From: Thermodesulfobacteriota bacterium
Lineage (GTDB): Bacteria; Desulfobacterota; Desulfobacteria; Desulfobacterales; C00003060
Reading direction: 5' to 3'
DNA: 64,000 nt
Assembly (NCBI GenBank): GCA_034189385.1
Contig: JAXHVD010000003.1
Span: 157,336-221,335, forward strand
The position numbers and the translations under genes were made by a program. The notes under the pieces were generated by a model. The model did not search any database, was not told the DNA's origin, and worked only from the letters and a program-made list of their open reading frames with translations. Positions 7,215-36,455 of the stretch are shown piece after piece; within the stretch, counting starts at the first letter, position 1, and each line of letters opens with the position of its first letter.

Positions 7215-7216
7215 GG

Positions 7217-8461: not shown

Positions 8462-8503
8462 CTCTGACTACCAAAAAGCGCTGTGGGTAGAACCATCCCT
8501 TTA

Positions 8504-16340: not shown

Positions 16341-17738
16341 CTACGCACGAGGGCCGATGTCCCCCTCAGAAAGAGACCCAATCCGGCGCACGTACGTCTC
16401 AATGTCAAACTTGCGCCGAAGCCCTGCGGCGTTCATATACCTGACCTTGCCGAAGACGGGGCGCTCAGACCAGGCCCGATCGTGTTTGCCCAAACACCAC
16501 GCCACGCCGGCAAATCCGTTGGGGTCTCTTCCATCCAACTCGTACTTATTGTTCAAGTAGAGCGCCGTGCGAAAGGCTTCTTCCGGGGTTTTGCTCCACT
16601 CCAAGATCTTCTTTCCCCAGTACATCCGCATGTAGTTGTGCATCTTGCCCGTTATCACCATTTCCTGTTGCGCTGCGTTCCAGTATGGGTCGTGGGTGCG
16701 GGCCTGCTCCCACGCCTCCACATCGTATATGTACTCACGGTTGTCCTTTTCATGGGCCCTCAGGGTTTCTCTGGCCCAGCCCGGCAGTGCCTGGTACGCA
16801 TCATAGTGCGGGTTGTAGTAAACAAAGTTCATGCTCAATTCTCGCCGCACGATCAGCTCTTCAAGGTACGCCTCTTTTGCTCCTTTTGGCTTGCCTCTTG
16901 CCCGGCGCACCTCGAGGCCAATCTCAACGGGAGAGATCTGCCCGAAATGGAGATACGGACTCATGTGTGAGCCATAGTCTGTACTGGGGTCGTTCCTGCG
17001 GTCCGCGTAGTATTTCAGCTTTTCCTTGATGAAGAGGTGGAGCAGCCCCATGGCCTCCTTTCTCCCGCCAGAGAAGGTCTCCACCGGAGAGACGCTTCGG
17101 TCCAGAGTGAGTCCACGGAGCGCCCCTTTCACGTCTTCCACATCCAGGCCCTCGTATGAAAGACCCAGGGAGTCTTTCTCCACAGGGGTTGATTTTAGGG
17201 AAACCAGATAGCGTTTCAGGTGCTTCTGAATCCGCGGCCGCAAGATGGCTGCAGTATAGGCCTCCTTTTCAGAAGCCACGGCAACAGGAACAACCACGTC
17301 GCTTTCCACTTGGACCACCAGACACGGGGCGTGGTCAGCCACGTGACGGCGCCACCCCTTCTGAATCCTAAGATACCCCCTGTCGGTCACCACCATGGAG
17401 GCGTCTTTGGAAAACTGGACGGCTGCAAGCTCGGGCGAGTCACGAAGGGCTACAAACTGAATGCCCCGCTGGTAGAGTCCTTCATGAACCTCCCGGAGCC
17501 CCTGAAGCATAAAGGCGTAGTGTCTCTCATTGGCCTCAGGAAAACGGTCGGTGATGCCGAAAAGAACGACGACCGGCCGCCTCAGTCCATTGGCTTGTCC
17601 GATGGCATACTCTAAGGCGTGGTTGAAGACCACTCTTTGAGAGGCCTGCATCCAGTAGAGGACATAGCGCCCCTTTTGGATGGGGCGATCATTCAATGGT
17701 TCCACCCGTTCCCGTTGAATCATGAGGCCCCCTGTCAC
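16341..17738 (-). CDS. phr: Class II CPD DNA photolyase
   Basis: VLYWM, SPYLHFGQIS, EELIVRREL, GKMHNYMRMYWGKKILEW, DGRDPNG. Confidence 0.95.
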   Translation of the reverse strand: MTGGLMIQRERVEPLNDRPIQKGRYVLYWMQASQRVVFNHALEYAIGQANGLRRPVVVLFGITDRFPEANERHYAFMLQGLREVHEGLYQRGIQFVALRDSPELAAVQFSKDASMVVTDRGYLRIQKGWRRHVADHAPCLVVQVESDVVVPVAVASEKEAYTAAILRPRIQKHLKRYLVSLKSTPVEKDSLGLSYEGLDVEDVKGALRGLTLDRSVSPVETFSGGRKEAMGLLHLFIKEKLKYYADRRNDPSTDYGSHMSPYLHFGQISPVEIGLEVRRARGKPKGAKEAYLEELIVRRELSMNFVYYNPHYDAYQALPGWARETLRAHEKDNREYIYDVEAWEQARTHDPYWNAAQQEMVITGKMHNYMRMYWGKKILEWSKTPEEAFRTALYLNNKYELDGRDPNGFAGVAWCLGKHDRAWSERPVFGKVRYMNAAGLRRKFDIETYVRRIGSLSEGDIGPRA

Positions 17739-17741
17739 GGA

Positions 17742-19295
17742 TCAGGACATCTTCTCTTGCAGACCTTTCGCCTGAGCGCGAATGGCCTGCTGCCTTTCTC
17801 TTGACAACCTGTCAAGGTTCCTAAACTGCAACCCCATTCGTGGGTTCTTTCTCAGGAACGTCTGGTGACGCATCAGGAAATCCCAATACAACGTGGTAAA
17901 GGGACAGGCAGCCTTAGACACCGCCTGCGATGGATCATAGGGACAAGCCGTGCAGTAATTGCTCATGCGCTGAATGTATTTTCCCGTGGCCACGTAAGGC
18001 TTTGAAGCCATGATACCGCCGTCTGCAAACTGTGACATCCCCAGGGTGTTGGGCAGCTCCACCCATTCCACGGCATCCACGTAGACCGCTAGATACCACT
18101 TGTGCACCTCTTGCGGCTTCACGCCCAAAAGGAGGGCAAAGAGGCCTGTCACCATCAATCTCTGGATGTGATGGGCGTAACCGTACGAGAGGGTCTGCCC
18201 GATGGTCTCTCGAAGACAAAGCATGTCCGTCTCCCCAGTCCAATAAAACCGAGGCAACGGCGCCTGTGCATCTAACCGGTTCAGGTCTCCGTATTCCGGC
18301 ATGAAGTGCCAGTATATCCCCCGAACGTATTCTCGCCATCCCAGAATCTGTCTGACGAAACCCTCTGCGGCATTCAACGGGGCGCGGCCCTCCTCATGGG
18401 CCCTTTCCGCTGCAGCCAAGACTTTTCTGGGATCGATCAGTTTCAGATTCAAGGAGGAAGACAGCCGCGAATGGAAGAGATAGGGACTGCCGGCCCACAT
18501 GGCGTCCTGGTACAGCCCAAATGCGGGCAGGCGGTTTTCCACAAAGTCTGAAAGGGCTTGAGACGCCTGGCGTGGTGTCACGGGCCAGTCAAAATGTGCC
18601 AGACTCCCCGGGTGCCCCGAAAACCGTTTCTCTACAAGCTTCTTGACTTCTCGGGTGGTCTTGTCCGGCCGGAAGGATCTAGGTGGAGAGACTCTTCCCG
18701 GGCCTTCTTTACCGAATGGCTGCCGATTCTCTGCGTCGTAGTTCCATTTGCCTCCCAGGGGCCCATCGCCGTCCATGAGGATGCCGGTTTTACGACGCAT
18801 CTTTCGGTAAAAAAACTCCATTCTCAATTGCTTGCGCTCACCTGCATACTCAGAAAACGTCTGGCCTGTAGAAAAGAAGTGTCGATCCGACCGCATCTCT
18901 ATGGGTAACCCTTTAGTCTTTGCCGCTTCCACCAGGGCCTGTTTCACCCTCCATTCCCCAGGCTCTGCCAGAATCAGCCTCTGGGGGTTGAGGCTTGCGA
19001 TGGCGGCTTTCAGTGCCAACGAAAAGGTTTCGCGGTTCTCTGGACCGTCTAGCTGGCTGTAGTGGACCGTCATACCCTTTCGCCGAAGGGCATCCCGAAA
19101 GTGCCTCATGGCGCTCAAAAATAGGGTGATGCGGGCCTTGTGTGACCATACATAGATGGATTCCTCTGGGATCTCCGCCATCCACACGGCATCATCAGCG
19201 GCATTGAATCCGTCAAAGGCCGAGGAGTCCGAATTGAGTTGATCGCCCAGCACCAAGATGAGATGGCGGGGCTTTTTGCGAGGATCGTAGGACAT
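17742..19295 (-). CDS. FeS-BCP cryptochrome/(6-4) photolyase (Agrobacterium PhrB/CryB-like)
   Basis: LVLGDQL, GGKWNYDAENR, RQILGWREY, YAHHIQRLM, KPY..GKYI.RMSNYC..C, CPFTTLYW. Confidence 0.92.
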   Translation of the reverse strand: MSYDPRKKPRHLILVLGDQLNSDSSAFDGFNAADDAVWMAEIPEESIYVWSHKARITLFLSAMRHFRDALRRKGMTVHYSQLDGPENRETFSLALKAAIASLNPQRLILAEPGEWRVKQALVEAAKTKGLPIEMRSDRHFFSTGQTFSEYAGERKQLRMEFFYRKMRRKTGILMDGDGPLGGKWNYDAENRQPFGKEGPGRVSPPRSFRPDKTTREVKKLVEKRFSGHPGSLAHFDWPVTPRQASQALSDFVENRLPAFGLYQDAMWAGSPYLFHSRLSSSLNLKLIDPRKVLAAAERAHEEGRAPLNAAEGFVRQILGWREYVRGIYWHFMPEYGDLNRLDAQAPLPRFYWTGETDMLCLRETIGQTLSYGYAHHIQRLMVTGLFALLLGVKPQEVHKWYLAVYVDAVEWVELPNTLGMSQFADGGIMASKPYVATGKYIQRMSNYCTACPYDPSQAVSKAACPFTTLYWDFLMRHQTFLRKNPRMGLQFRNLDRLSRERQQAIRAQAKGLQEKMS

Positions 19296-19749: not shown

Positions 19750-20235
19750 ATGAATACAGAATCGGACGCTCAGACAGACCAATACGACAAGGAGCAAGGG
19801 CTGAAAGCGCGCCTTAAGGCCCTCTTTTCGTCTCAGAGATTTGCCGTTCTTGCCACGCAAAAAGACGGTCAGCCATCTACCAACCTGGTGGCCTTTGCCG
19901 CCACAGATGATCTCAGGCAATTGCTCTTTGTTACCCCCCGGGCCACCCGCAAATTTGCCAACCTTGCCAGTGACGCCCACGTTGCTATCATGATAGACAA
20001 CCGGCAAAACCTGGTTTCAGACCTCCGTGACGCCATGGCCGTCACGGCCACAGGGGCGGCTGAGGTGGTGGTGGGCCCTGAAAAAGAGGCCCTATTGGGG
20101 TTGTACCTCTCCAAACACCCGTTTTTGGAAACATTTGCAAGGGCCCCCTCTTGCGCTCTCTTGAAGATCTCCGTTAAGACCTACGACATTGCAGGAGCAT
20201 TCCAAAACGTGATGGAGCTGAAGATGATGCCATGA
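19750..20235 (+). CDS. Pyridoxamine 5'-phosphate oxidase family protein
   Basis: FAVLAT..GQP..NLVAF, TPRATRKFANL; start uncertain (19669 or 19750). Confidence 0.8.
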   Translation: MNTESDAQTDQYDKEQGLKARLKALFSSQRFAVLATQKDGQPSTNLVAFAATDDLRQLLFVTPRATRKFANLASDAHVAIMIDNRQNLVSDLRDAMAVTATGAAEVVVGPEKEALLGLYLSKHPFLETFARAPSCALLKISVKTYDIAGAFQNVMELKMMP

Positions 20236-22412
20236 GTCTCGTCCTCGCCCTTCATGAAATCCGTAACGAGCACAGGCCTCTTGTAGGCGGAAAAGGCTTT
20301 GCCCTGGCTGCCCTGGTTCAAAGAACCATGGCAGTCCCGGAAGCCCTCTGTGTCACCACCCAAGCCTACCACCAGTACCTTTCCAGCGGAGGGCTTCGTG
20401 ACCGGATCGGCATGGAATTGAACCGGAAACCCTTCCAGGAGATGAGGTGGGAAGAACTATGGGATGCCGCTTTACGCGTCCAGAACCTCTTCCTGCAGAC
20501 GCCTTTTTCCAAAGAGCTCTACGAGGCCATTTGTATGCCTATTGCCGAGATCTTTGGGGACAAAGCAGTAGTAGTGAGATCATCTGCCCTGGGAGAAGAT
20601 ACGGCCCAGAGTTCTTTTGCGGGTCTGCACGAATCGTACGTCAACGTCAGAGGCACAGAGGCTATTTTGGACCACATACGGCTCGTTTGGGCCTCCCTCT
20701 GGTCGGACCGCGCCCTGCTGTATCGACAGGAATTGAACCTACAGGTTGAAAAGAGCGCCATGGCCGTGGTGATTCAGGAAATTCTAGTGGGAGAACGATC
20801 AGGTGTCGTCTTTGGCAAGGACCCCAACGATCCGTCACAGACGGTCATCGAGGCCGTGTATGGATTGAATCAAGGGCTGGTCGATGGGACCGTCGAGCCT
20901 GACAGGTGGATTCTGGATCGCCAGAGCGGGCGGCTCATCTCTCATGTGCCTGCCAGCAGAAAAAAGGCTATGGTCCCTGTCCCCGGGGGCCTTCTCCTTG
21001 ATGCATTGCAGCCTGACAAGGCCGATTGCCCACCCCTTGACCAGGAGGAGATGGCCAGGGTCTTTGAACTCTCACGGAAGACAGAAGAGGTCTTTGACGC
21101 TCCCCAAGACGTGGAGTGGACCTTTGGCAAAGATGTACTCTATGTCCTTCAGTCACGTCCTGTCGCGTCGCCCCTGTCAACGGCTCATGACGACAAGAGG
21201 CCATGGTATCTCAGCTTGAAGAAGAGCTTTGAAACCTTAAAGGGCCTTCGCAAGACGATCGAGGCCGAGTTGATACCGCAGATGCACCAAGAAGGGCGAA
21301 CCCTTGCCGCGTCCGATCTGGATCAGCTATCAGACGTTGAGCTCGCAAAGGAAATCGAGCTCAGAAGAAGCATCTACCAGAAGTGGGCACGAATCTACGA
21401 AGAGGCGTTCATCCCCATGGCCCACGGCATTCGGCTCTTTGGGCAGGTTTATAACAACACGGTCCGCCCGTCAGATCCCTATGAATTCATGACCCTTCTG
21501 GGAGCCACGGAGATGGTCAGCCTCAGACGCAATGGCATGCTTGATGACCTGGCAGCAATGATCCGATCGAACCCCAAGCTGGCGGAGCGCTTAAGAAACG
21601 GCGATCTCTCTGTTGATGATGACGCCTTCCATGCTGGCCTTCGAGATTTCGCAGACGAATTCACCGATCTGTCGTGCGGTACCGATCAATGCGTCAGTGG
21701 CCAACACGCCATCGCGAAGCTTCTCCTTGAAATGGCCGGTCGTCCCTCTCTGAGACAGGCTGTTCCAAAGAAGGACTTCCAGGGCCTTAAGGATGCGTTC
21801 TTGTCTCGTTTTCAGGCCAATCAACGCTCCTATGCTGAAGAGCTTCTTGATCTTGGACGGGCCAGCTACCGCTTGAGAGATGATGACAATATCTACTTAG
21901 GCCAGGTCAGAGCTCAAATGGACCGAGCAGTGAGCGAGGGACGGAATCGGGTAAAAAGCACAAACAAGACAGAGGGTCGTGCGTCCGCCGCCCACAGCCT
22001 TGCAAAGGCCTTAAAGACCCACGACCTTCTCTTTCAGACCCACCTCTCACCTGTTTCTGAAAAAGCAGGGCTTCAAACCACGGTCAGGCAAATCGTGGGA
22101 CAACCGGCAGGACCTGGAATTGGAAAAGGCCCGGCGCGGGTGATTGCTGACCCGTCTGATTTGATGGATTTTCAAGCCGGAGAGATCCTGGTATGCGATG
22201 CACTGGATCCAACCATGACCTTTGTCGTCCCTCTGTCAGAAGGAATCGTGGAACGCCGGGGCGGCATGTTGATCCACGGCGCCATTATTGCCAGAGAATA
22301 CGGGCTCCCATGCGTTACCGGGATCCCTGAAGCGGCCTCGGTCATCAAGAACGGTGAGCAACTTACTGTCGATGGCTATCTGGGCATTGTCACCATCCAT
22401 CGTGAAGCATAA
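20232..22412 (+). CDS. PEP-utilizing dikinase-like enzyme (PPDK_N ATP-grasp + phospho-His swivel domain)
   Basis: VGGKG, VRSSALGED..SFAGLHES, QDVEW..LQSRP, GGMLIHGAIIAREYGLP; ATGA overlap with upstream gene. Confidence 0.85.
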   Translation: MSLVLALHEIRNEHRPLVGGKGFALAALVQRTMAVPEALCVTTQAYHQYLSSGGLRDRIGMELNRKPFQEMRWEELWDAALRVQNLFLQTPFSKELYEAICMPIAEIFGDKAVVVRSSALGEDTAQSSFAGLHESYVNVRGTEAILDHIRLVWASLWSDRALLYRQELNLQVEKSAMAVVIQEILVGERSGVVFGKDPNDPSQTVIEAVYGLNQGLVDGTVEPDRWILDRQSGRLISHVPASRKKAMVPVPGGLLLDALQPDKADCPPLDQEEMARVFELSRKTEEVFDAPQDVEWTFGKDVLYVLQSRPVASPLSTAHDDKRPWYLSLKKSFETLKGLRKTIEAELIPQMHQEGRTLAASDLDQLSDVELAKEIELRRSIYQKWARIYEEAFIPMAHGIRLFGQVYNNTVRPSDPYEFMTLLGATEMVSLRRNGMLDDLAAMIRSNPKLAERLRNGDLSVDDDAFHAGLRDFADEFTDLSCGTDQCVSGQHAIAKLLLEMAGRPSLRQAVPKKDFQGLKDAFLSRFQANQRSYAEELLDLGRASYRLRDDDNIYLGQVRAQMDRAVSEGRNRVKSTNKTEGRASAAHSLAKALKTHDLLFQTHLSPVSEKAGLQTTVRQIVGQPAGPGIGKGPARVIADPSDLMDFQAGEILVCDALDPTMTFVVPLSEGIVERRGGMLIHGAIIAREYGLPCVTGIPEAASVIKNGEQLTVDGYLGIVTIHREA

Positions 22413-24483: not shown

Positions 24484-25716
24484 TCAACGAGAGGCCGCAT
24501 CGCTTTTAAAGGCATCGACGTTCTCTATGTGCGCTTCTTCCTCGGTGATGGTCGTAAGGGGCGGATCATCAGCGATATCCATCCCCGGCACGTAATCAAA
24601 GACTCCCGTAAGCTCCCTGTTTACCATCTGGTAGAGCCTGGTCAGGGGAATTTCCATAGGACACACATCTTGACACTGCCCGCAATTGACACAGGAGTCT
24701 GCCACATGAGCCAATCTGATTAAAGGAAACATGATATGGGGCGGCGTTTCTCCAGCTTGCACAAGATCTCTTGATGGCTCCAGGTAACAGTCCTGACAGT
24801 AACAGATGGGACACACATCCCTGCAACCAAAGCACTTGATGCACCTGTCAAGATATCTTAGCCAGTATTGCAATCGATCCTCGTAGGGAAGCCATCTTAG
24901 GACATCCAGGTCCTTTTCTTGCCAGGTCTGGGCCAATTCAACGGCCTCTTGGTCTTCTTGTTCCCTTTCCTTTAAGGCTTCCTGATCAGGCGGCTCCGCG
25001 TGAAGGGCACCCGCTTCCAAGGCCTCTTCCATCAGGTTGGAGCCTTTCTCCGAGCATACTTCTATGAACGTAGCCTGTTGGCCCTTTGTGCCCCACTTGC
25101 CACAAGCCAGATCAGCCATCCGAGGAATATTGAAGGCGCACCGCCTACAATTTTCTCTTCTGCCATATCCCTGTTCCTCTAGCTCCTTTAGATCCCTTTC
25201 TTTTTTGCTCCCATCTGCGAGCGTGATGACAAGTTTTTTTGAATCAAGCTCCTCGCCCACCACGTCCTCAGGGTTGACCTGATATGCCTCTGAAATCATT
25301 CTTCTGGCAACGCCTGGCATCAATGTGCCCGTGCAGTTCAGGCCTATTAAGAGGAGATTCTCGGTATTGATTTGTCTCCTTTTCGCTAGCTCTATGATGG
25401 CACGGCAGTCACAGGGCTTGCAGGTCACTGCCACCTTCAGGTCTTGGGCACCGTTTAGATACTCCCTTATCTCTTTGGCTACATTCACTGGAGCAACGTG
25501 CAGGGTCCCAGCACAGGTGATGACTTCGTCGGGATTCGATATGAGAGACACCACTCCATCATATCTGTTTCCATCTCTTTTTCGGACCGCCAATACGGCA
25601 TCTACAATCTTACGCTCAAGGGCAAACTTCAGCAACGCAGTGACTGCACCACCTGATGCGCCCTTAGACCGAATTTGCTCGTCAGTGGACCAAGCAAGAT
25701 ACATGTCGCCTTTCAT
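24484..25716 (-). CDS. fdhB: Formate dehydrogenase beta subunit, FrhB/FdhB type with C-terminal 2x[4Fe-4S]
   Basis: SGGAVTALL, KPCD, IGLNC.G, RRENCRRC, ADLACGKWG, CIKCFGCRDVCP, CVNCGQCQDVCP. Confidence 0.85.
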   Translation of the reverse strand: MKGDMYLAWSTDEQIRSKGASGGAVTALLKFALERKIVDAVLAVRKRDGNRYDGVVSLISNPDEVITCAGTLHVAPVNVAKEIREYLNGAQDLKVAVTCKPCDCRAIIELAKRRQINTENLLLIGLNCTGTLMPGVARRMISEAYQVNPEDVVGEELDSKKLVITLADGSKKERDLKELEEQGYGRRENCRRCAFNIPRMADLACGKWGTKGQQATFIEVCSEKGSNLMEEALEAGALHAEPPDQEALKEREQEDQEAVELAQTWQEKDLDVLRWLPYEDRLQYWLRYLDRCIKCFGCRDVCPICYCQDCYLEPSRDLVQAGETPPHIMFPLIRLAHVADSCVNCGQCQDVCPMEIPLTRLYQMVNRELTGVFDYVPGMDIADDPPLTTITEEEAHIENVDAFKSDAASR

Positions 25717-27746
25717 TATGATACCTTCTCTACCTTCACTGCACAGAACTTGAACTCCGGCATCTTAGACGGAGGGCCTGCACAGGGTCCTGTCAAGACG
25801 TTTGGTGCGCATTCTGAAAAATGCCAAGGCACAAATATCAGGCCTTTCCTAATGTCTTCTGTTACCCTAGCCACTGTCTCTATCGTGCCTCTTCTGGATG
25901 TTAATCTCACCTGGTCTCCGTCTTGTATGGAGAGGGCCTGGGCATCTTCAGGGTTTATCTCTGCAAATCCATGGGGCAGCTCATTGTTCAGGCGCCCAGT
26001 TCGTCTGGTCATGGTGCCTGAATGAAAATGGAATATCACCCTGCCATTTGTGAATATGTAAGGATACTCCTCATCTGGCACCTCCAAAGGGGGAGTGTAT
26101 TCTGCAACCTGGAATTGTGCAAGACCGTCTGCGGTGGGGAATTTGCCAACAAACATGACCTCCGTCCCAGGATGATCCTCTGTGGGGCATGGCCATTGAA
26201 TGCCGCTGGGATTTTTGAGCCTTTCATAGGTAATCCCCTTGTATTGAGGCACACATTTCCTGATTTCCTCAAAAATATCAGCCGGGCTCTGAAAACCAAA
26301 GGCCGCCTCAAAACCCATCCTCTTTCCCAATTCACAGAAAATGTCCCAATCCGGTCTTGCATCACCCGGCGGCGCCACGGCCTTGTAGAGCCTCTGAACC
26401 CTTCTATCTACCCCGGTCATGGTCCCGTCCTTTTCCACGGACGTCGCTGCAGGGAGCACAATGTCAGCCATTTTTGCCGTTTCTGTCATAAAGATATCCT
26501 GGACGACCAAGAAATCTTTGCTTTTCAGGGCCTGCCTGACGCTTGTCGTATCTGGCGCAGCCGACATGGGATTCGCCCCCACGATGTATAAGACTCTGCA
26601 TTTTCCCACCATGTCCATGTAAGTCATTCCAGGGGTTGAAGGCAGATCCTTGACTCCCCAGAGGTCTTCAAAACGCCTGGCTGTTTCCTCATTCACCTTT
26701 TGAAATCCAGGGTAGAAAACTGGCAAGGGCCCCATGTCCCCAAAGCCCTCACCATTGGCATGACCCCTCAGGGGGTTTACGCCAGTACCCGGCCTTCCAT
26801 AGTTTCCCGTCATGAGTGCCAAGTCCACCAAAGCCCTGATGTTCTCTATGCCTGCACCATGCTGGGCAATGCCTGCATTGTATAAGATACAGGCTTTTTC
26901 GGCCTTCCCGTACATGAGTGCCGCCTCTTTGATCACATCAAGGGGGATCTCCGTGATGCGCTCTATTTCACGCAGATCCAGACTCTGCAAATAGCTCTTC
27001 AGGTCCTCAAATCCTTTTGTCCTCTCTTCTATGAACCCTTTATCCTCTAGCCCCTCATCCAAGATGAGCTTCATCATGCCGTTGACCAGGGCATTGTCCG
27101 TCGCAGGGTAGATCTGCAAGTACAGGTCTGCAAGGTTTCGAGCCGTGATCGTCCTTCGGGGATCTGCAACGATCACCTTGGCCCCTTTACGCTTTGCCCG
27201 TATGATCCTGCGGGCAATGATGGGATAGGTTTCCTGGAGGTTGGGACCGGCCACAAAGATGCAATCCGCCTGCTCAATACTGATAGTGGACGTTGGCATC
27301 ACGCCTGAGCCCACTGTGGAAAGCAAGGCGGGCACTGAGGTAGAATGGCAGAACCTGGAGGCATTATCCATGTTGTTTGTCTTCTTAACGACCCTGACAA
27401 ACTTCTGAATGACATAGAGATCTTCGTTTGTACACTTTGCAGAATTGATGAAGCCCACCTCATCGGAAGCCGTGCTGCCCAATTTGTCTGCGATCACCGA
27501 AAGGGCAGCATCCCAGGAGGTCTCCGCAAAGACACCGTCTCGTTTTACTAACGGCCTTACCAGCCTTTGATCACTCGTTGAACAGGCATGGGCGTTTCTT
27601 CCTTTCTGGCAGTTTTTGCCCTCACATACGGGATGCCCCTTCCACGGCTCCATGCCCACCAACTCGCCGTCTTTTACTACCAAGTAGATGCCACATCCGC
27701 AGCCGCAGTAAGGGCAAATAGTCGGTACGTGTTCAATGGATGTCAT
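25716..27746 (-). CDS. fdhA: Mo/W-bis-PGD formate dehydrogenase-like alpha subunit (Cys ligand)
   Basis: CPYCGCGC...C.KG cluster, SRFCH active-site loop, PLRGH, QDIFMTETA..ADIVLPA, PEFKFCAVKV. Confidence 0.85.
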   Translation of the reverse strand: MTSIEHVPTICPYCGCGCGIYLVVKDGELVGMEPWKGHPVCEGKNCQKGRNAHACSTSDQRLVRPLVKRDGVFAETSWDAALSVIADKLGSTASDEVGFINSAKCTNEDLYVIQKFVRVVKKTNNMDNASRFCHSTSVPALLSTVGSGVMPTSTISIEQADCIFVAGPNLQETYPIIARRIIRAKRKGAKVIVADPRRTITARNLADLYLQIYPATDNALVNGMMKLILDEGLEDKGFIEERTKGFEDLKSYLQSLDLREIERITEIPLDVIKEAALMYGKAEKACILYNAGIAQHGAGIENIRALVDLALMTGNYGRPGTGVNPLRGHANGEGFGDMGPLPVFYPGFQKVNEETARRFEDLWGVKDLPSTPGMTYMDMVGKCRVLYIVGANPMSAAPDTTSVRQALKSKDFLVVQDIFMTETAKMADIVLPAATSVEKDGTMTGVDRRVQRLYKAVAPPGDARPDWDIFCELGKRMGFEAAFGFQSPADIFEEIRKCVPQYKGITYERLKNPSGIQWPCPTEDHPGTEVMFVGKFPTADGLAQFQVAEYTPPLEVPDEEYPYIFTNGRVIFHFHSGTMTRRTGRLNNELPHGFAEINPEDAQALSIQDGDQVRLTSRRGTIETVARVTEDIRKGLIFVPWHFSECAPNVLTGPCAGPPSKMPEFKFCAVKVEKVS

Positions 27747-28179
27747 GAGCGCCTTCTCTCTCTATCCTTTGTGACAGAGGGTTTGGTCCAATGCCTCTTG
27801 CCTCTTCTACAAAGTCCCTGACCAATTGCGCAAATTGCGGACCCTCCGATGCGGATACCCAGGCCAGGCGCAATCTGGCCGGATCGATACCCACACATTC
27901 CAGCAATTTCTTCGTCATCAAGACCCGTCTTCTTACGTGCAGATTACCTTCCAGGTAATGACATTCACCCGGATGTCATCCCCCCACAAGCACGGCATCT
28001 ATGCCCTGAGTCAGTGCCTCCAAAATCATGACAGGATCAATTCTCCCAGTACACATGACCCGGATCACCCGGATGTTGGGGGGATATTGGAACCTGGAAA
28101 CGCCAGCCAGATCGGCTCCGGCGTAAGAACACCAGTTGCACAGAAAGGCTATTAATTTGGGTTCAAATGAACTTGACAT
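27733..28179 (-). CDS. mvhD: MvhD/FlpD [2Fe-2S] subunit, selenocysteine-containing
   Basis: [23 protein letters not shown](TGA 27976-27978)-HPGECHY; ORFs 27976..28212 and 27733..27921 in frame; hairpin ATTACC-TGGAA-GGTAAT. Confidence 0.92.
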
Positions 28180-28284
28180 TGTCAGAAACCCCCGTCTTTC
28201 TCCTAAGGCCATGTAGAATAGGCTGAAAGGTGGACCTTGAAGAAGGGAACGTTTTTTCTGCTGCTTTTGGATTTCAGCTTTTCT

Positions 28285-31200
28285 CTAAACAACAGCATGA
28301 ATTTGTGCCCTGATTTGATGTTGACTAAAATGACACATATCAACGGCTTTTGACGGACAGCTCGCAGCACAAAGGCCGCAACCCTTACAGGATGCAGTAA
28401 TGTTTTCAGCCTTCATTTCACCATGAAGCTCCACTAGGTGGATGGCATCGAAGGGACACACCCTTTCACAGATGCCGCATCCATTGCACATATCCGTATT
28501 CACCACAGATACAATGGGCTCGATCTCCACTGCATCTTTCATTAAGATATTTGCAGCCCGGGCAGCAGCGGCTTTGGCCTGGGCAATAGACTCCTCAATC
28601 GGTTTAGGATATTGACAAAGCCCTGCCAAGAACAGGCCTTGAGTGGCAAAATCAACGGGCCTGAGCTTCATATGGGCCTCCAAGAAGAAGCCTTCTTCGG
28701 TGGTGGACACTTTATAGAGTTTGGAAAGGGCCATGTTGTCATTTGGTAAAATGGCAGTGGCAAGGCAGATCATGTCTGGAAGGATTTCAAGGGGTCTTTG
28801 CAACACGTGGTCCGTAATCCTCAGCTTGAGTCTGCCATTTTTCCTCTCAACCGTAGGTTCATTTCCCAGGTTGTAGCGAATGAACAGCACGCCTTTGGCT
28901 CTGGCCTCTGTGTACAACTCCTCCCTGTCCCCAAAGGTCCTGATATCCCGATAGAGGATATATATACGCATATGGGGATTGAGCCGTTTCAGGGCCAACG
29001 CACTGACCATAGAATGGGTGCAGCAAACCTTACTACAATAGGGTCTTTCAGGTATTCTGGATCCTACGCACTGGATGAAGACAACGCTCTTGGCGTTGCT
29101 GATCCGTTTACTACGGCCCACGATCTCTTGATCAAGTTCCAGGGGCAGCAATACATCTGGGTCTCTTCCATATAGATATTCCCTGGGCTTATAGGGTTTG
29201 CCGCCAGTCGTCATGATGACTGCCCCGTGCTGCAATTCTGTCTCTTTGCCCTCCTCGTCAAGGAGCGTGGAGGAAAACCCTCCCACAAAACCAGAGGCGT
29301 CCTTGATGGTTGTCCGAAGCCAAAGAGTGATCAATGGATGCTCACGGACCTTTTTGATGAGGTCTTCTACATAAGCCCTTATATCTTCGCCTTTATAGGT
29401 GGTGTCAAGATGGAGGGCCTGACCGCCCAGTCTATTCTCTTTTTCGACGAGATCGGTCTTGAACCCTTGCTCAGCCAGACTTAAAGCGCTCACCATGCCT
29501 GCCACGCCCCCACCGATCACCAACCCCTGGTGGTTGACCGGTACAGATATGTCCGCCAGCGGCCTGATGAGCCTTGCCTTGGCCACAGCCATTCTGACGA
29601 GGTCTTTGGCCTTTTTGGTAGCTGCATCCGGCTGTTCCATGTGGACCCAGGAGCATTGATCACGGATATTTGCCATCTCAAAGGTGTATTTATTCAAACC
29701 GGCCTCGCGGAGTGTTTCTCTAAACAGGGGCTCATGGGTCCTTGGCGTGCAGGAGGCAACGACCACCCGGTTAAGGTCATATTCTTTGATGTGTTCCCTT
29801 ATCCTGTTTTGGGTATCCTGGGAGCAGGTGAAAAGATTTCTATCTGCTACGACGACATTGGGAAGGGTCCGCGCATATTCAGTGACTTCAGGGACGTTGA
29901 CCACGCCCCCAATATTGATCCCTCAATGGCAAACAAAGACGCCTATGCGCGGTTCCTGACCAAGGATCTCTTTTTCAACAGGATACTCCTTTTTCTTCAC
30001 CAGCGTATTTCTTGCCGGCGCCAGGAGGCCCATGGCAGAATCGGCTGCAGCACTCGCCTCCATGACCGTACCTGGGATGTCCTTTGGTCCTTGAAATGCT
30101 CCGCACACATAGACCCCTGGCCTTGAAGTCTCTACAGGAGAAAGGCACTGCGTCTTTGCAAAAAGGTGGTTATCCAGCTCTATATGGAGCCGCTCAGCCA
30201 AAGCTTCAGCCTTGGCAGGAGGCATGAGGCCAATGGAAAGGACCACCATGTCAAATACTTCCTCTTTCCTCTCGCCTGTTTCACTGGCATAGACCAGCTT
30301 GAGGTCCCCACTGTCTGCCACGGGCTCTATGGAGTGTATCCTTGACCTGATAAACCGGACACCAAATTCATCCTTGGCCCGGTTATAGTACTTCTCAAAA
30401 TCTTTGCCGTAGGTCCGCATATCCATGAAGAAGATGGCTGTATCTAATGGCAACGAGCTGTGTTCCTTGGAAATGACGGCCTCTTTGATGGCGTACATGC
30501 AGCACACAGCAGAGCAGTACCCTTGGTCACATTGGTTTATATTCCTTGAACCCACACATTGAAGCCAAGCGATCTTTTTCGGTTCTTTTTCGTCAGACGG
30601 GCGCACAAGGTGGGCCTTGTAAGGACCGGAGGCACTCAGAATACGCTCGAATTCCATGCTCGTGACCACGTTGGGAAAGCGGCCATGCTGATAGAGATCA
30701 TCGCCTGAAGGATCGTATGGCTCAAAACCTGGGGCCAGGATGATGGACCCAACATTTAGTTCGACTGTTTCATCTTCTTGAGAGTGATCGATGGCATCAG
30801 CAGCGCAAAACGCAGTACATATCTTGCATCCACCGGTCTTGAAGTGCATGCAGTATTCACGGTCGATTGCCGGCGCCTTTGGCACGGCCTGAGGATAGGG
30901 GATGTACACCGGTTTTCGTCCGATAAGCCCCATGTCATACTCAGAGGGAATAGGTTCAACGGTATGTTTGGTAATATCTTTTAGCTTGATGTGGCCAGTG
31001 GGACAAACCGACGCGCAAGCTCCGCAGGCCATACACAGTTCGGTCTGAATATGGAAAGGGGTATCCACTCTCATATCCACACCCCTGCCGGTCAGGGTGA
31101 TGGCACTGTTTCCCATCCTCTCGCAAACACGGACACAAAGACCGCAGAGGATGCAATCATCGTCCCTCTTCTTAAACCGCGGTTCCTTGATCCCATATCG

Positions 31201-31521
31201 CGCTGCCAGCTCCTTGACCGTAGGCACGTTCGGACAACGAGCAAGGAGGAGTTCCACGATCAGTTTTCGCCCCTCATGGACTGCATCGGTCTCCGTGCGA
31301 ACCTCCATCCCTTCCTTGATGGGGTAGTTACATGCCGTGACGAAATTGGTCTTACGGCCATCAAAAACCTCCACCGTACAAAGACGACACATCCCCGCAG
31401 GCCCAAGGGCCTTATGGTAGCATAAGGTGGGAATCTCGACCCCGTATCGTTCGGCCACCTGAAGGATGTATTCTCCTTCTTCTCCCTGGACGTCTTTTCC
31501 ATTCAGCTTAAAATGTACCAT
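28285..31521 (-). CDS. hdrA: NuoG/HydA-N-terminal FeS domain fused to tandem HdrA (lacking first FAD-binding N-terminus), selenocysteine-containing
   Basis: IPTLC..G.CRLC.VE..TAC and CILCGLCVRVC, then YIPYPQAVP, QCVGSR..YCS.VCC; VFVCH-U(TGA 29923-29925)-GINIGG; ANIRDQCSWVH; GGGVAG; hairpin GGGGCGT-GGTCA-ACGTCCC. Confidence 0.9.
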
Positions 31522-31641
31522 GGATTACTCCCTGTTAACGCGCTGTTGCCCAAATCGCTTTTCGCTTTGGCTAAAACCTTTTTTGACAAATCTAAAGCTC
31601 ACTCCAGGCGATGTCAAAACTCGCCCTTTTGGCTCTGCAAC

Positions 31642-33543
31642 TCATTCTATACAGATGGCGTTGAACTTACAGGCATTGTAACAGATGCCGCACTTGATGC
31701 ATTTCTCCTGGTCTATGTGATGGCATTTCTTCTTTTCACCGGTGATGGCCTCCTGCGGACATTTGAGTGCGCAGAGATGACAGCCGTTACACAGAGCTTC
31801 ATCAACTTCGTAATGAAAAAGGGCCTTGCAGACACCTGCGGGGCACTTCTGATCCTTGATGTGGGCCTCGTACTCATCTCGGAAATAGAGGAGCGTCGTT
31901 AACACCGGATTGGGGGCTGTTTTGCCTAGTCCGCACAGGGAAAACCTCTTGATCATGGCAGCCAGCTCCTGAAGGAGTCTGATGTCGCCCTCCCGGCCCT
32001 TTCCCTCGCAGATATCACCCAGGATTTCTGCCATCTGGGTAATCCCTTCACGGCAGGGCGTGCATTGACCACATGATTCGTTCTTGAGAAAATCCAGGAA
32101 GTATTTTGCAATGTTGACCATGCAGGTGTCCTGGTCCATGACGATCATACCGCCCGAGCCCATGATCGAGCCAAGCTCGCTGAGCTTCTGGTAGTCTACC
32201 GGGGTATCGAGGTACTGTTCAGGGATGCAGCCACCGGAAGGCCCCCCTGTCTGAACAGCCTTGAATGCCTTTTTCTTCGGAATGCCGCCGCCTATATCAA
32301 AGACGATCTCTCGCAAGGAAATGCCCATGGGGACTTCTACCAAGCCGGTATTTTTCACCTTCCCCACGAGGCTAAAGACCTTCGTCCCTTTGCTGTGCTC
32401 CGTGCCGATGTTGCCGTACCACTGGGCACCCTTTAAGAGGATCACCGGGACATTGGCATAGGTCTCAACGTTATTCAGGTTGGTTGGTTTTTCCCTGAAC
32501 CCTTTTTCCACAGTATGCACATATTTGGCCCTGGGTCTTCCCACTTGACCTTCCAACGAAGCCATCAAGGCCGTTGATTCACCACAAATAAAGGCCCCTG
32601 CCCCAGTGGAGATCTTGATGCGGAAACCAAAATCAGTCCCCCCTATATGGTCACCAAGCAACCCATAGGCCTCTGCCTGCTTGATGGCTGTGACCAGGCG
32701 CTTAACCGCCAACGGGTATTCATGCCGCACATAAATGAAGCCTTGATGGGAGCCAATGGCCCGTGCTGCAATCAACATCCCTTCCAGGACACTGTGGGGG
32801 TCGCCTTCCAGAATACTCCTATCCATGTAGGCGCCCGGGTCGCCTTCATCGGCATTGCAGATGATATATCTCTCACCCTTCAGTCTTGCACAACTTTCCC
32901 ATTTTATTCCTGTTGGAAAGCCAGCACCACCGCGACCCCTTAACCCCGATTCCTTGATGGTCTTAATAATCTCAGGGGGGTCGCCTTCCAACAGGCATCG
33001 CATAAAGGCTAGGTACCCGCCTTTGGCGATGTACTCTTCGATGCTATCGGGGTCAATATAGCCACAATTGCGCAAGGCGATTTTTGTCTGTTTACTGTAA
33101 AAGGGGACATCCTCCAAGAAGGGGATCCCCTCGATGGGTGCTGTCTCGGCAAGGGGGTTTTCCATGTCTTCTTCTAATAGGGAACGAGGATCGCGCATTT
33201 GGGCTAGGATCCACTTTTTATTGAAATCGCCTTGGATGTAGCCTTCAATGGCGTCTAGGATCTTCTCCTTGGAAAGGTGCCTGTAAACCACTCTCGGCCG
33301 CCCCTTTCCGAAGATTTCGACCAAGGGTTCTTCCTGACAGAAACCCAGACAACCGGTCTTGTGGATCTCAATGCCAGGGTCCTCTGGAAATGCCTCTAAG
33401 GCCTTTTCAAAGGAGGCCTTTGCACCGGCTGCGATGCCACAGGAGGCCATTCCTATGTTCACCGCGATGCCTTCTGGGTGGTATAGCCTGTTGCTGTAGT
33501 CCTGCCTGATCTCTTCCAGGTCTTTAATAGACCCCACTTGCAT
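31642..33543 (-). CDS. NuoF/HydB-like NADH-binding flavoprotein with N-terminal [2Fe-2S] and C-terminal 2x[4Fe-4S]
   Basis: GRGGAGFPTG, CNADEGDPGAYMDR, GAGAFICGE, ESCGQCTPCREG, SLCGLG, HIKDQKCPAGVC, two CxxCxxCxxxC. Confidence 0.92.
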   Translation of the reverse strand: MQVGSIKDLEEIRQDYSNRLYHPEGIAVNIGMASCGIAAGAKASFEKALEAFPEDPGIEIHKTGCLGFCQEEPLVEIFGKGRPRVVYRHLSKEKILDAIEGYIQGDFNKKWILAQMRDPRSLLEEDMENPLAETAPIEGIPFLEDVPFYSKQTKIALRNCGYIDPDSIEEYIAKGGYLAFMRCLLEGDPPEIIKTIKESGLRGRGGAGFPTGIKWESCARLKGERYIICNADEGDPGAYMDRSILEGDPHSVLEGMLIAARAIGSHQGFIYVRHEYPLAVKRLVTAIKQAEAYGLLGDHIGGTDFGFRIKISTGAGAFICGESTALMASLEGQVGRPRAKYVHTVEKGFREKPTNLNNVETYANVPVILLKGAQWYGNIGTEHSKGTKVFSLVGKVKNTGLVEVPMGISLREIVFDIGGGIPKKKAFKAVQTGGPSGGCIPEQYLDTPVDYQKLSELGSIMGSGGMIVMDQDTCMVNIAKYFLDFLKNESCGQCTPCREGITQMAEILGDICEGKGREGDIRLLQELAAMIKRFSLCGLGKTAPNPVLTTLLYFRDEYEAHIKDQKCPAGVCKALFHYEVDEALCNGCHLCALKCPQEAITGEKKKCHHIDQEKCIKCGICYNACKFNAICIE

Positions 33544-33556
33544 CGCCTGAAACCCC

Positions 33557-34054
33557 TTAGTGATATTCATCCAACACCTTTTGTATGTTTTCCTGGCTGA
33601 CCCGGCTATAGACGTCTTCATTGATCTTGACGACTGGTCCAAGACTACAGCATCCAATGCAGCGCACAGGCTCGAGAGTGAAGCGCATATCTTCCGTTGT
33701 TTCTCTGGCGCCCACATGGAGAATCTCCTGGATCCTTTCCCACAGCCTTGCCCCGCCCCTTACATGGCAGGCCGTCCCCAGACAGACAGAGATGATGTTT
33801 CTGCCTTTGGGGACCAGACTGAAGCTGCTGTAGAACGTACCGACAGCATAGATGAGACTGATCGGCACCCCTATCTTCTCAGAAAGATAGGTCAAAGATG
33901 CCTGGGGCAAGTGGTTATACTGACGCTGAATGGCCTGGAGAATCATGATAAGATTCTCTTTGTCGTCGTGGAATTCCTCATCTATGATCCGATCAAGTTC
34001 CATGTAATCGATCTCAACGGTTTGCTCCATCGTAGATAGCGCTATGTCAGTCAT
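33557..34054 (-). CDS. NuoE/HydC-like [2Fe-2S] subunit
   Basis: VCLGTACHVRG, VRCIGCCSLGP. Confidence 0.92.
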   Translation of the reverse strand: MTDIALSTMEQTVEIDYMELDRIIDEEFHDDKENLIMILQAIQRQYNHLPQASLTYLSEKIGVPISLIYAVGTFYSSFSLVPKGRNIISVCLGTACHVRGGARLWERIQEILHVGARETTEDMRFTLEPVRCIGCCSLGPVVKINEDVYSRVSQENIQKVLDEYH

Positions 34055-34285
34055 ATAGGTGTCTCCCTCACAGGAAAAAGGTCTATTCCCTAGGTGTTGA
34101 GAATAATTAGAAATGGCGTACTCGAGGGTGGACTGCAGGTTATTGAAAACTCACCCCTGGCTCCATGGATAACGAGCAACAGGAAGGCCTATTTGTTTTC
34201 CGTGCACTTCTCTTTCCAAGACTCCGATACGCCATACGCGACGTTTGCCCGTTGGCGAGTCCTTGTGGACTCGCAACACCAAGAC

Positions 34286-34687
34286 TTATCCATCCATAAC
34301 CGCTTGATTGGTCACCGGGCAGTTCTCCACACAAAGGCCGCACCCAATACAACGGCTCAAGTCGATACTCCGGGCGCGCTTCTTCACCTTTACTCTGAAA
34401 TTGCCAGCAGAGCCATCCACCGATTCGATGTCGGCATAGGTGATGATTTCGATATTCAGGTGGCGACCGCATTCCACCAACTTTGGCGACATGATACACA
34501 TGGAACAGTCATTGGTGGGGTATGTCTTATCTAGTTGGGACATCTTGCCGCCAATGGCTGGCGTATCTTCAAGTAGATAGACATAAAAGCCAGCATCGGC
34601 GAGATCAAGGGCAGCTTGGATGCCACCGATGCCACCACCTACCACCAACACGGCACCGACTTTGTCTTCTTGTTGAGACGTTGCCAT
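34286..34687 (-). CDS. Stand-alone HdrA N-terminal module (FAD-binding motif + one [4Fe-4S] motif)
   Basis: VLVVGGGIGGIQAALDLAD, GGKMSQLDKTYPTNDCSMC, CIGCGLCVENCP then TAA. Confidence 0.88.
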   Translation of the reverse strand: MATSQQEDKVGAVLVVGGGIGGIQAALDLADAGFYVYLLEDTPAIGGKMSQLDKTYPTNDCSMCIMSPKLVECGRHLNIEIITYADIESVDGSAGNFRVKVKKRARSIDLSRCIGCGLCVENCPVTNQAVMDG

Positions 34688-35000: not shown

Positions 35001-36044
35001 TCACATGGGCTTGACGTGGGATAGTCTCTCGCTCATGTTCTGTTCATAGAACTGCGTGGGCTGAAGCTCTTCATACTCGTTCCTTGAGGCGAGGTATTTC
35101 CGTATATCCAGGCAGAGGTGACATTTGGAAACGTAACCTTTGCTTTTCTCTCCATAACCCCTTTCTAAGGCAAAAGAAAACAGCCCTCTCATGTCTTCAT
35201 GGACCAAATAGTTCAAGACAGGGCGGTTTTCCAGATCGAGTCCCTCTCTGAGGAGGCGATCCAACTCAAACCAACTCCCTAAGGAGATCCCGCCGCAGTA
35301 GCCGGGCATGAGATTGCCGTAATTGTCAAAATGGTTGTGCCAGTTGCGCAGCATCGTTGGCTGGCAGGGCACGCGAAAGAACCCTTTGGCCCGGTAGCTG
35401 GGGTAAAGGTCCTTTAATTGATAGGCAGCGCGGCCCATTAGAAAAAGCTCCACCCTGTGGGACACCGACTCCCCGCCGGTGAGGTTTTGATAGTCCTCAA
35501 TGGAAAGCCTGCCCCTAATGCCCAGCTTTTTAAAAAGACGATAATACTCCAGCTGATAGACGATCACATCGGCCCCAAAGACCTCCAGGCTGATTTGAAT
35601 GCACCGGTCTGTTCTTTCAAAGGGGACATACTCGGCATAGTAAGGATTTACCGAGATCAAGATCCCCCTGAGCCCCTTTTCCTTGAGGGCCTGGAGCCGT
35701 TCCCGCGTCAGGTCGTCGCTCTTGCACCAGAAGCAGTTTGTTTCCACAAACGTGGACGGGATCTTCAATGCTGCTGCAATCTCAACGGCCTTCAGCAACA
35801 GCTCAACATTTAAGAAAGGCTCTCCACCTGTGAAATGGAGCCCGTGGTTCAAGCTCATATGTCGCCGACCCTGTGGGCTGGGTTTGATCACCTTGGCCAG
35901 CTGGGGAAGAGATTGTTCCAGCTGCTCCACCGTTATCCAATCGGGGGTCCATTTCGGCGAGCAGGCGTACATGCAGTGGCGGCAGGAAGCAGGGCACTTG
36001 TAGGAAAGGATCAGGCCGCCGGAGATGGGAGGAGGTATTTTCAT
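35001..36044 (-). CDS. Radical SAM protein
   Basis: CPASCRHC, FTGGEPF, VETN, C-terminal CHLC. Confidence 0.88.
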   Translation of the reverse strand: MKIPPPISGGLILSYKCPASCRHCMYACSPKWTPDWITVEQLEQSLPQLAKVIKPSPQGRRHMSLNHGLHFTGGEPFLNVELLLKAVEIAAALKIPSTFVETNCFWCKSDDLTRERLQALKEKGLRGILISVNPYYAEYVPFERTDRCIQISLEVFGADVIVYQLEYYRLFKKLGIRGRLSIEDYQNLTGGESVSHRVELFLMGRAAYQLKDLYPSYRAKGFFRVPCQPTMLRNWHNHFDNYGNLMPGYCGGISLGSWFELDRLLREGLDLENRPVLNYLVHEDMRGLFSFALERGYGEKSKGYVSKCHLCLDIRKYLASRNEYEELQPTQFYEQNMSERLSHVKPM

Positions 36045-36047
36045 CCC

Positions 36048-36455
36048 TCAAAACGCTTTATAGATCCGCGCAAGGGGATGTCCCTGGGCCTGGATGGTCA
36101 GATCGTTGAAATAGCCGTAGGGTGTTTGAAAGGCTTGGTAGCCGGCAGTCTCCAAGCGTTGCTGGGCCCTGTCGAAAAGGGCTTTAGCGTCTTCGGGGCC
36201 GGCCTTATCGTCTCCCAGATGGGTAAAGGAGTGCAGGATAATGATCGTTGTCTCCCATTTTCTCGCAAGCCATTTCGCGTTCTTCACCAGTTTGGTTTCT
36301 GCAGCATTTTTGCCTTCCACATCTTTCGGCTCCACGTGAATGAATGCCACCACCGCTTTTTTTTGGAGATCTGCTGCGGCATCTGGAGCGTCATCCAACG
36401 TTTTCATGGCCGGGTTCCATGCAAAGGTGTCGCAATACCAAAAGAGGACTCTCAT
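36048..36455 (-). CDS. Free-standing archaeal-type threonyl-tRNA synthetase editing domain
   Basis: VVAFIHVEPKD, LHSFTHL, PYGYF....GHPLARIYK. Confidence 0.8.
   Translation of the reverse strand: MRVLFWYCDTFAWNPAMKTLDDAPDAAADLQKKAVVAFIHVEPKDVEGKNAAETKLVKNAKWLARKWETTIIILHSFTHLGDDKAGPEDAKALFDRAQQRLETAGYQAFQTPYGYFNDLTIQAQGHPLARIYKAF

Follow-up and report, generated by a model that had tools for sequence, protein, structure and literature searches.

On the minus strand of a 64,000-nucleotide stretch of contig JAXHVD010000003.1 (assembly GCA_034189385.1, Thermodesulfobacteriota bacterium; the whole stretch is called the window here), between positions 24,484 and 34,687, lies a seven-gene operon in which an hdrA gene is divided in two by a nuoE-nuoF-nuoG module. 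A 133-residue hdrA-N (the head) is followed by nuoE, by nuoF and by a large gene in which a NuoG-like domain runs into the remainder of HdrA and then into a second HdrA unit, after which come mvhD, fdhA and fdhB. These genes very probably specify one complex with a flavin adenine dinucleotide (FAD) domain built from two chains. We further propose, with a probability of roughly 0.5, that the seven proteins form one soluble complex in which electrons from formate would be bifurcated at the two-chain HdrA FAD and then a second time by the inserted module, for which we use the Bfu names (NuoE as BfuC, NuoF as BfuB, the NuoG-like domain as BfuA).

An earlier note, made from the letters of the window and its open reading frames (ORFs), had given the order and strand of the seven genes and their place as found here, and it had correctly described hdrA-N as carrying GGGIGG and DKTYPTNDCSMC and as ending just past CIGCGLCVENCP, by nine residues in our reading. 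Family scans of the operon proteins identified the HdrA pieces, NuoE, NuoF, FdhA and an FrhB-type FdhB. In alignments to 5odc_A, residues 13-126 of the head match residues 146-259 and the large chain matches from about residue 241 onward; both gene junctions sit inside the inserted ferredoxin of HdrA, where the note had placed them, and its proposal that two chains make up one HdrA FAD domain is likewise supported by the sequence evidence. The length of 1078 residues that it gave for the large protein holds if TGA at codon 533 (VFVCH-U-G) is read as selenocysteine (Sec); under translation table 11 the gene is instead two ORFs of 532 and 539 residues. The 231-nt gap between the head gene and nuoE is in frame and has one internal TGA; because other strains carry insertions of 1-2 nt in it and its length varies among relatives (30 nt in L058, ~300 nt in L038), we set aside the idea of a coding remnant and handled the gap as non-coding. 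A promoter and terminator scan of this spacer gave no excess of matches over the chance level. Neither hdrB nor hdrC is present in the operon, and HdrB-type CCG genes lie elsewhere in the genome (C62:93955, C23:36754).

The earlier note had suggested looking for this layout in other genomes, and it is present well beyond this assembly. From a genome collection we took the best 80 loci, which are kin and not independent samples; the order hdrA-N, nuoE, nuoF, fusion gene occurs in 53 of the 58 with at least 3.3 kb of upstream DNA. As to the five exceptions, the head was found by BLAST in L125, the genomes of L081, L100 and L119 have head and nuoE together elsewhere, and L115 (Desulfatibacillum alkenivorans DSM 16219), which has no head or nuoE within 10 kb upstream, was outside that search; genomes G029 and G010 likewise have head and nuoE together, away from the fusion gene. 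Of 40 related genomes, 17 have the complete NuoG-HdrA junction, as do at least 15 of 400 genomes drawn from the phylum, where three more matches were partial (six candidates were scored per genome, hence a lower bound). The layout is common in Desulfobacterota. The junction is also carried by 25 of the best 150 clusters (50% identity), with members labelled Candidatus Sumerlaeota, WOR-3 and Fidelibacterota, and an atlas cluster is mostly Chloroflexota; these names are database labels, and gene order there was checked just in metagenome loci. The head/nuoE junction is bridged by contigs of two runs, X1, which may be the source sample, and X2, from a separate study; X1 contigs also cross the NuoG/HdrA junction, while no single piece covers the whole operon.

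The head gene shows no decay, a point on which the earlier note had asked for a check. The CxxCxxCxxxCP motif is kept in 60 of 60 heads, stand-alone heads end 6-19 residues after it, and the best 119 short homologs in a protein collection (search limited to 73-233 residues) all end within 30 residues of it. Head genes have equal length over 108 codons in 67 of 69 cases, with an internal TAA or TAG in 0 of 69, and the ratio of nonsynonymous to synonymous substitution rates (dN/dS) has a median of 0.061 and a maximum of 0.21 in the 996 unsaturated pairs among 2145; by this measure purifying selection acts on it. A second copy of the cassette is present on C62 of this genome, its fusion protein being 51% identical. 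This copy (G000:C62:93311-117292; compare L001:5312-10920 and L002:4965-13293) begins with hdrC-hdrB-hdrA-N (166 residues)-nuoE and a nuoF joined to a GltD-like domain, continues with ~10 kb of sigma-54 two-component genes, and then has the fusion gene, mvhD, metV, metF and two more HdrA-like genes.

Natural fusions tie the parts together in other lineages. In a distant class (44-49% identity) the head is fused in frame to NuoE in 10 of 10 loci from 9 genomes, and the same holds for all 13 metagenome loci with the head visible upstream (35 examined), which makes 23 fused loci overall; with BfuA belonging to the HdrA chain and, in these 23 loci, BfuC joined to the head, the two modules are covalently interlocked. 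In two genomes of the window's genus (L041, L042) a single chain of 1228 residues comprises head, BfuA and both HdrA units, and there is a second, distant single-chain form (P0269). The single-chain form is nested within the split group in a BfuA tree (58 rows, 180 columns) and is for that reason probably derived; the tree leaves one versus two fusion origins undecided, with stand-alone BfuA rows interleaved at weak support. An alignment of 36 rows (A6) served for the BfuA region. In the simplest history that we infer, bfuC-bfuB-bfuA would have been inserted in frame into hdrA, giving head::BfuC and BfuA::body, with a later fission between head and BfuC in the lineage of the window. Several relatives carry other arrangements of the same parts. 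At L133:5202-7037, L135, L189, L210, L221 and L223 the HdrA part joined to BfuA is one non-tandem body of ~585-611 residues, and L211 and L223 have an N-terminal iron-sulfur (FeS) domain, head and NuoE in a single ORF. At L133:8814-12263 (same length at L135:5922-9371) there is a 1149-residue HdrA with a response-regulator receiver domain (residues 192-301) just past the ferredoxin motifs, so that this hot spot carries a further kind of insert. L084:9947-13849 encodes a 1300-residue fusion protein with a C-terminal GcvH-like domain, and GcvH-like genes stand beside six cassettes (e.g., L041:1877-2878). Short stand-alone hdrA-N genes that come after mvhD and have no nuoE behind them (L143:1489-2352, L144:1489-2355) suggest another kind of split HdrA, and in the close relative L058 (17083-20429) a second nuoE-nuoF pair and a stand-alone nuoG directly follow fdhB.

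By its cofactor ligands the inserted NuoEFG is a Bfu (HydABC-type) module, which would be expected to couple the reduction of NAD+ and of ferredoxin to a third substrate. The best solved relatives of NuoF are NiFe-BfuB, NfnB, StnB and HydB (top PDB match 7t2r_B, E=2e-214), and its domains are FMN-binding, SLBB (E=1.3e-4, below its cut-off), NADH-4Fe4S and Fer4. All five ligands of cluster B2 (C474, C512, H561, C567 and C572), a set defined in PMC9304861, are present in the alignment to 7t2r_B. The spelling H-x5-CP-x3-C occurs in 61 of 78 cassette NuoF proteins, and 17 of the 18 exceptions listed in an 81-ORF set differ at the Pro but retain the His and the two Cys. B1 and B3/B4 are present in the window NuoF and, among relatives, the B1 motif in 78 of 78 and the C-terminal 2x[4Fe-4S] pair in 76 of 78. 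The window NuoF also has the A-x-M / Phe pattern that we take to be a signature of bifurcating HydB, to which we give little weight. NuoE corresponds to BfuC with its C1 [2Fe-2S] cluster (PF01257, E=1.7e-45; four Cys). BfuA has A1, A2 and A4, the His-ligated A3 motif is missing in 44 of 44 fused BfuA, and the best BfuA-type PDB match is 9mqx_A; in Type 2 BfuA electrons enter at the A4 cluster (PMC9304861).

The two HdrA units differ in the residues that bear on bifurcation. In the alignment columns of unit 1, K346 and E292 (equivalent to K409 and E356) are found in 104 of 104 homologs, as are the HA4 ligands C322, C336, C340 and C341; at the corresponding places in unit 2 the Lys is found in 21 of the 104, the Glu in 12 and the TxDCxxC pair in none, and the window unit 2 has Val and Asp. 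The N-terminal FeS domain and the C-terminal ferredoxin occur in unit 2 alone, and the FAD motif and Cys pair are conserved in heads. K409 and E356 are a proposed signature of bifurcating HdrA (PMC12054007), the residue at Cys197 is implicated in the relay from FAD to cluster (PMC13518236, PMC9012536), and complementary units, with the Cys pair on one and the N-terminal FeS domain on its partner, have been described for tandem HdrA (PMC9012536). BamE of class II benzoyl-CoA reductase has a bifurcating first FAD and a non-bifurcating second one (bioRxiv 10.64898/2026.04.10.717634). Because unit 1 keeps these residues and unit 2 mostly does not, as in BamE, the two-chain FAD is likely the bifurcating one. 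After the ferredoxin motif ahead of the HdrA body, 116 of 119 fusions have TGH, which many stand-alone BfuA share, whereas the motif of the head is followed by V, as in HdrA; BfuA accordingly has a complete 2x[4Fe-4S] set of its own, and the inserted ferredoxin of HdrA is probably shared between head and large chain. An AlphaFold2 model of the single-chain relative L041 (residues 1-806) has a mean predicted local distance difference test score (pLDDT) of 72 and a predicted template modelling score of 0.57. In Foldseek comparisons it matched HdrA cores across the insertion with template modelling scores, normalised by target, of 0.87 (8rvu_a, 8rwn_A) and 0.91 (6tjr_A, root mean square deviation 2.9), a fit that rests on likeness to solved structures.

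Partner genes were counted in the 40 loci with both flanks. In 22 of these mvhD is followed by an FrhB-like gene of ~315 residues, with one more that has hdrBC upstream, and at most FrhB-like loci AsrA- and AsrB-like genes come next; we take the FrhB-like gene and the AsrA/AsrB-like set to be a Flx-type module. The arrangement mvhD-fdhAB occurs in two of the 40, mvhD only in one, none of these partners in four, and an hdrB or hdrC match beside the cassette in 11, while MetVF and Mvh-type hydrogenase genes are found at other loci (the hydrogenase genes were recognised by eye). The phrase 'without hdrBC' in the earlier note is thus right for this operon but not for those 11 loci, and Fdh, the partner in its formate-linked complex, is a minority one. 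The window FdhA scores 771 bits against TIGR01591 (cut-off 666), and its RFCHS and PLRG align with RLXHS and PLRG of 9t1s_L, presumably the active-site Cys/Sec-His and Arg. FdhA and FdhB are together closest to FdhAB of methanogen Fdh-Hdr complexes.

In the complex that we propose, the 133-residue head would dock on the large chain and complete the first FAD domain, supplying the Cys61/Cys64 pair and half of the inserted 2x[4Fe-4S] ferredoxin. Electrons from FdhAB would reach the two-chain FAD via unit 2's C-terminal ferredoxin and MvhD, as in methanogen Fdh-Hdr. The low-potential electron would then travel from the Cys pair to the N-terminal cluster of unit 2, on to the inserted ferredoxin and into BfuA, and BfuBC would split the electrons of this branch between NAD+ and ferredoxin. 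The high-potential electron would leave through the HA4-type cluster to an HdrBC-type partner encoded at another locus, probably towards DsrC, which is the weakest step; in other genomes the same core would have other partners at MvhD. The inserted ferredoxin is the low-potential exit, and MvhD or BamF the entry, in class II benzoyl-CoA reductase (bioRxiv 10.64898/2026.04.10.717634) and in methanogens. With fdhAB placed after mvhD and BfuA joined on at the exit, a path from formate through MvhD and the split FAD to BfuA is the most direct one. Slightly short of even odds, in our estimate, is the wider view of a widespread redox platform of anaerobes in which two unrelated bifurcating machines are nested at the gene level and run in series, in the reverse order of class II benzoyl-CoA reductase, with formate, H2, NADH, methylene-tetrahydrofolate (THF) or HdrBC modules swapped round a fixed core, and with the bifurcating FAD site, the Cys/Sec relay and the exit ferredoxin each completed by a 15-kDa chain.

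Several points weigh against serial bifurcation in this complex. The structure model is of a single-chain relative, not of the window's two chains; its pLDDT is under 50 for the Cys pair (43-66) and likewise for the ferredoxin motifs at 284-316 and 334-368, and cluster pairing and distances are not shown by it. The fusion point is by itself no proof of an electron path, and Bfu is on the input side in the only solved complex of Bfu and HdrA (bioRxiv 10.64898/2026.04.10.717634). The window operon encodes no high-potential outlet, and no hdrB or hdrC match lies nearby in 29 of the 40 loci. The B5 site of NuoF has three Cys (C35, C65, C69) and not four, the same pattern as in the N-termini of 8oh5_B and 9bov_B. 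The sequence does not give the direction, formate oxidation or CO2 reduction, and an acetyl-CoA synthase gene of the Wood-Ljungdahl pathway is present in the genome.

The best surviving alternative, which we consider unlikely, keeps the same complex and lets Bfu alone bifurcate, HdrA-MvhD being a relay between FdhAB and BfuA; the enzyme would then resemble Fdh-Bfu, working reversibly between formate and NADH + ferredoxin, and might serve CO2 reduction in the Wood-Ljungdahl pathway. It would account for the missing hdrBC in the operon and near those 29 loci and agrees with the presence of cdhC/acsB in the genome, and as formate (-420 mV) lies between NAD and ferredoxin (table in PMC9304861) no third acceptor would be needed. 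Yet the invariance of K346, E292 and the four HA4-type cysteines across the 104 homologs is hard to square with a plain wire, hdrB or hdrC is present at 11 of the 40 loci, and a Flx-type NAD(P)H module at MvhD would make a near-futile NADH-to-NADH loop without a third partner.

We think it still less probable that the wiring follows class II benzoyl-CoA reductase, so that Bfu would confurcate NADH and reduced ferredoxin as input, BfuA would reach the arm of MvhD plus C-terminal ferredoxin in space, and bifurcation at HdrA would then drive FdhAB to reduce CO2, the high-potential electrons having an acceptor of their own. This order is the one proposed from the structure of that enzyme, whose BamE has an equal tandem layout, and CO2 reduction would benefit from low-potential electrons. 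Set against it, the covalent position of BfuA is within the inserted ferredoxin, which in class II benzoyl-CoA reductase and in methanogens is the output side; MvhD has 148 residues, without the more than 100 extra residues by which BamF binds BamI; and fdhAB, of the type in the methanogen Fdh-Hdr complex, where FdhAB presumably docks on the MvhD side, come directly after mvhD. That the products work as two or more separate complexes (Bfu as a trimer, HdrA-MvhD-Fdh as a unit), or that the first FAD site is empty and the head has a structural role only, seems to us very unlikely: in some genomes head and nuoE do lie apart from the large gene, at a distance of over 20 kb or on a different contig, and the single-chain form exists without nuoE-nuoF between its parts, but BfuA is part of the HdrA chain, BfuC and head are joined in the 23 fused loci, and both the FAD motif and the Cys pair show conservation. 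Misassembly, or an insertion that left behind a pseudogene fragment of hdrA, might be suspected in a fragmented bin with no long read across the operon, and is ruled out by the second copy, the dozens of carrier genomes, purifying selection and the bridging of the head/nuoE junction by contigs from another study.

The nearest characterised system is class II benzoyl-CoA reductase, Bam[(BC)2DEFGHI]2, of Geobacter metallireducens, which also has a Bfu module (BamGHI) and a fused HdrA dimer (BamE) (bioRxiv 10.64898/2026.04.10.717634; Bam-Bfu in PMC9304861); as is likely in the window, the FAD of BamE unit 1 bifurcates (Lys280, Cys59-Cys62) and that of unit 2 does not, and the MvhD homolog BamF contains Sec (bioRxiv 10.64898/2026.04.10.717634). 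The differences are that BamI and BamE are separate and BamE is described as one subunit, whereas in the window BfuA is joined to HdrA within the inserted ferredoxin and two genes together encode the FAD domain; that BamI feeds the input at the C-terminal ferredoxin and BamF, the inserted ferredoxin being the output to BamBC (bioRxiv 10.64898/2026.04.10.717634); and that the window MvhD is short and followed by FdhAB. BamB, BamC and BamD are absent from the ORFs of window positions 18000-42000, and with BfuA fused, HdrA split and MvhD unextended we rejected membership in this class. The joining of two bifurcation-type modules in one complex, as the earlier note had it, is supported by the sequence, but HdrA-Bfu joining as such is already seen by cryo-electron microscopy in class II benzoyl-CoA reductase; the differences here lie in the wiring and the gene nesting. 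BamGHI has been produced in E. coli, and the authors of that structure call the coexistence of two bifurcation modules previously unreported (bioRxiv 10.64898/2026.04.10.717634).

Bfu Type 2 enzymes (Wor-Bfu 9mqx, FdhFeFe-Bfu) and NiFe-Bfu 7t2r share with the window the BfuB/BfuC ligands and a BfuA with A1, A2 and A4 and no A3 (PMC9304861); the window BfuA differs in having the HdrA body as a C-terminal domain, as Type 1 enzymes have one, and an HdrA-fused type was not found in the available text of PMC9304861. The methanogen Fdh-MvhD-HdrABC(-Fmd) complexes (7bkb, 9t1s, 5odc) are alike in FdhA, FrhB-type FdhB, MvhD, an HdrA with K409/E356, C194/C197 and the HA4 ligands, and an inserted ferredoxin that docks the low-potential partner. 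They have a homodimeric HdrA in place of the asymmetric tandem of the window, whose operon lacks hdrBC, and polyferredoxin/Fmd in place of Bfu at the exit. HdrL of Desulfobacterium autotrophicum (PMC2702500) and type III HdrA (PMC12054007) likewise have an NAD(H)-binding module at the inserted ferredoxin, and hdrL loci adjoin mvhD and in some cases fdhB/fdhA (PMC2702500), but theirs is a single GltD-like domain in one chain, in contrast to a three-gene Bfu cassette that breaks the gene. Membership there was rejected too, the HdrA parts of the window having no GltD domain (in the C62 copy GltD is on NuoF). FlxABCD-HdrABC and MetFV-HdrABC-MvhD use the same partner modules that stand beside the split core elsewhere (PMC6491731, PMC10553843, PMC5736913, PMC7325909), with HdrA unsplit and no Bfu module as they are described. 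A literature search that covered few subscription papers returned no description of this split HdrA layout.

If serial bifurcation is correct, the operon would represent a second way of chaining two bifurcation modules, wired opposite to the sole characterised enzyme. With the low-potential output of HdrA going into Bfu, two high-potential reductions would pay for one ferredoxin reduction, and such wiring would permit ferredoxin reduction where donor and acceptor lie too close in potential for one bifurcation to suffice, by our own arithmetic for instance NADH with an acceptor at roughly -200 mV. This would bear on the balance of NADH, ferredoxin and DsrC in sulfate reducers and syntrophs. The natural split also puts the Cys194/Sec197 pair, whose role is called unresolved in PMC13518236, on a small, separately expressible chain and so offers a handle on its mechanism.

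The host genome (G000) is a 90% complete metagenome bin of 4.13 Mb in 64 contigs, whose nearest named relatives are the Desulfobacterales C00003060 and Desulfobacteraceae Eth-SRB2 bins. It encodes tRNA-Sec, selA, dsrA and cdhC/acsB; by gene content the host reduces sulfate, uses Sec and has a marker gene of the Wood-Ljungdahl pathway. At the position of Cys197, 58 of 60 heads have Sec; that of the window has Cys, with Sec instead in the N-terminal domain of unit 2. Among 60 loci readable at both sites (window positions 29923-29925 and 34496-34498; relatives L038-L136), Sec is at the head position in 53, in the unit 2 N-terminal FeS domain in three, the window included, at neither in four and at both in none. 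L040 is a natural set with Cys only. Folding for a selenocysteine insertion sequence gave a hairpin after both UGA codons with z-scores of -0.01 and -0.83, and we did not use it as evidence. In most genomes a UGA falls in the middle of the head gene, so that translation by the standard code yields two fragments, a reason why the architecture may have been overlooked. A search for cofG, the single F420-synthesis family searched, gave no match above the cut-off in this 90%-complete genome.

Table 1. Features of the split-hdrA operon in the window
Feature	Length	Position	Strand	Description
hdrA-N	133 aa	34286..34687	-	N-terminal half of first HdrA FAD domain (GxGxxG); Cys61/Cys64 pair (= Cys194/Cys197 of 5odc_A); first CxxCxxCxxxCP of inserted ferredoxin
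hdrA-N/nuoE spacer	231 nt	34055..34285	-	Probably non-coding; both genes a single ORF in other lineages
nuoE / bfuC	165 aa	33557..34054	-	[2Fe-2S] thioredoxin-like subunit
nuoF / bfuB	633 aa	31642..33543	-	FMN/NAD(H) site; B1, B2, B3/B4 ligands; three-Cys N-terminal domain
Large gene (NuoG::HdrA-HdrA)	1078 aa	28285..31521	-	
BfuA (NuoG-like) domain	~residues 1-184 of large chain	30970..31521	-	[2Fe-2S] and own 2x[4Fe-4S]; without His-ligated A3 motif
HdrA unit 1 remainder	~residues 185-520	29962..30969	-	Second half of inserted ferredoxin; E292, K346 (= E356, K409); HA4-type cysteines C322, C336, C340, C341
HdrA unit 2	~residues 521-1078	28285..29961	-	N-terminal FeS domain with Sec533 (TGA 29923-29925); second FAD domain without Cys pair, inserted ferredoxin and Lys; C-terminal 2x[4Fe-4S]
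mvhD	148 aa	27733..28179	-	Sec at codon 68 (GG-U-HPGECH)
fdhA	676 aa	25716..27746	-	Cys-type formate dehydrogenase alpha subunit; TIGR01591 above cut-off
fdhB	410 aa	24484..25716	-	FrhB/FdhB-type; closest to FdhB of methanogen Fdh-Hdr-Fmd complex (7bkb_E)

Just upstream of the operon and on the same strand, window positions 35001-36455 hold a radical SAM gene and a gene for a stand-alone threonyl-tRNA synthetase editing domain. Elsewhere in the window a gene cluster at 5125-9500 encodes a cyclopropane fatty acid synthase, a flavin amine oxidase and a fatty acid desaturase, and a photolyase gene and a photolyase-related gene lie side by side at 16341-19295, here in a sulfate reducer. A dikinase-like gene at 20232-22412 has ATP-binding and mobile His domains, with no match to a pyruvate-binding domain at the threshold used. 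At 62506-63990 a SocA/Panacea antitoxin-like gene stands beside a 148-residue ORF without a Pfam match, possibly as a toxin-antitoxin pair.

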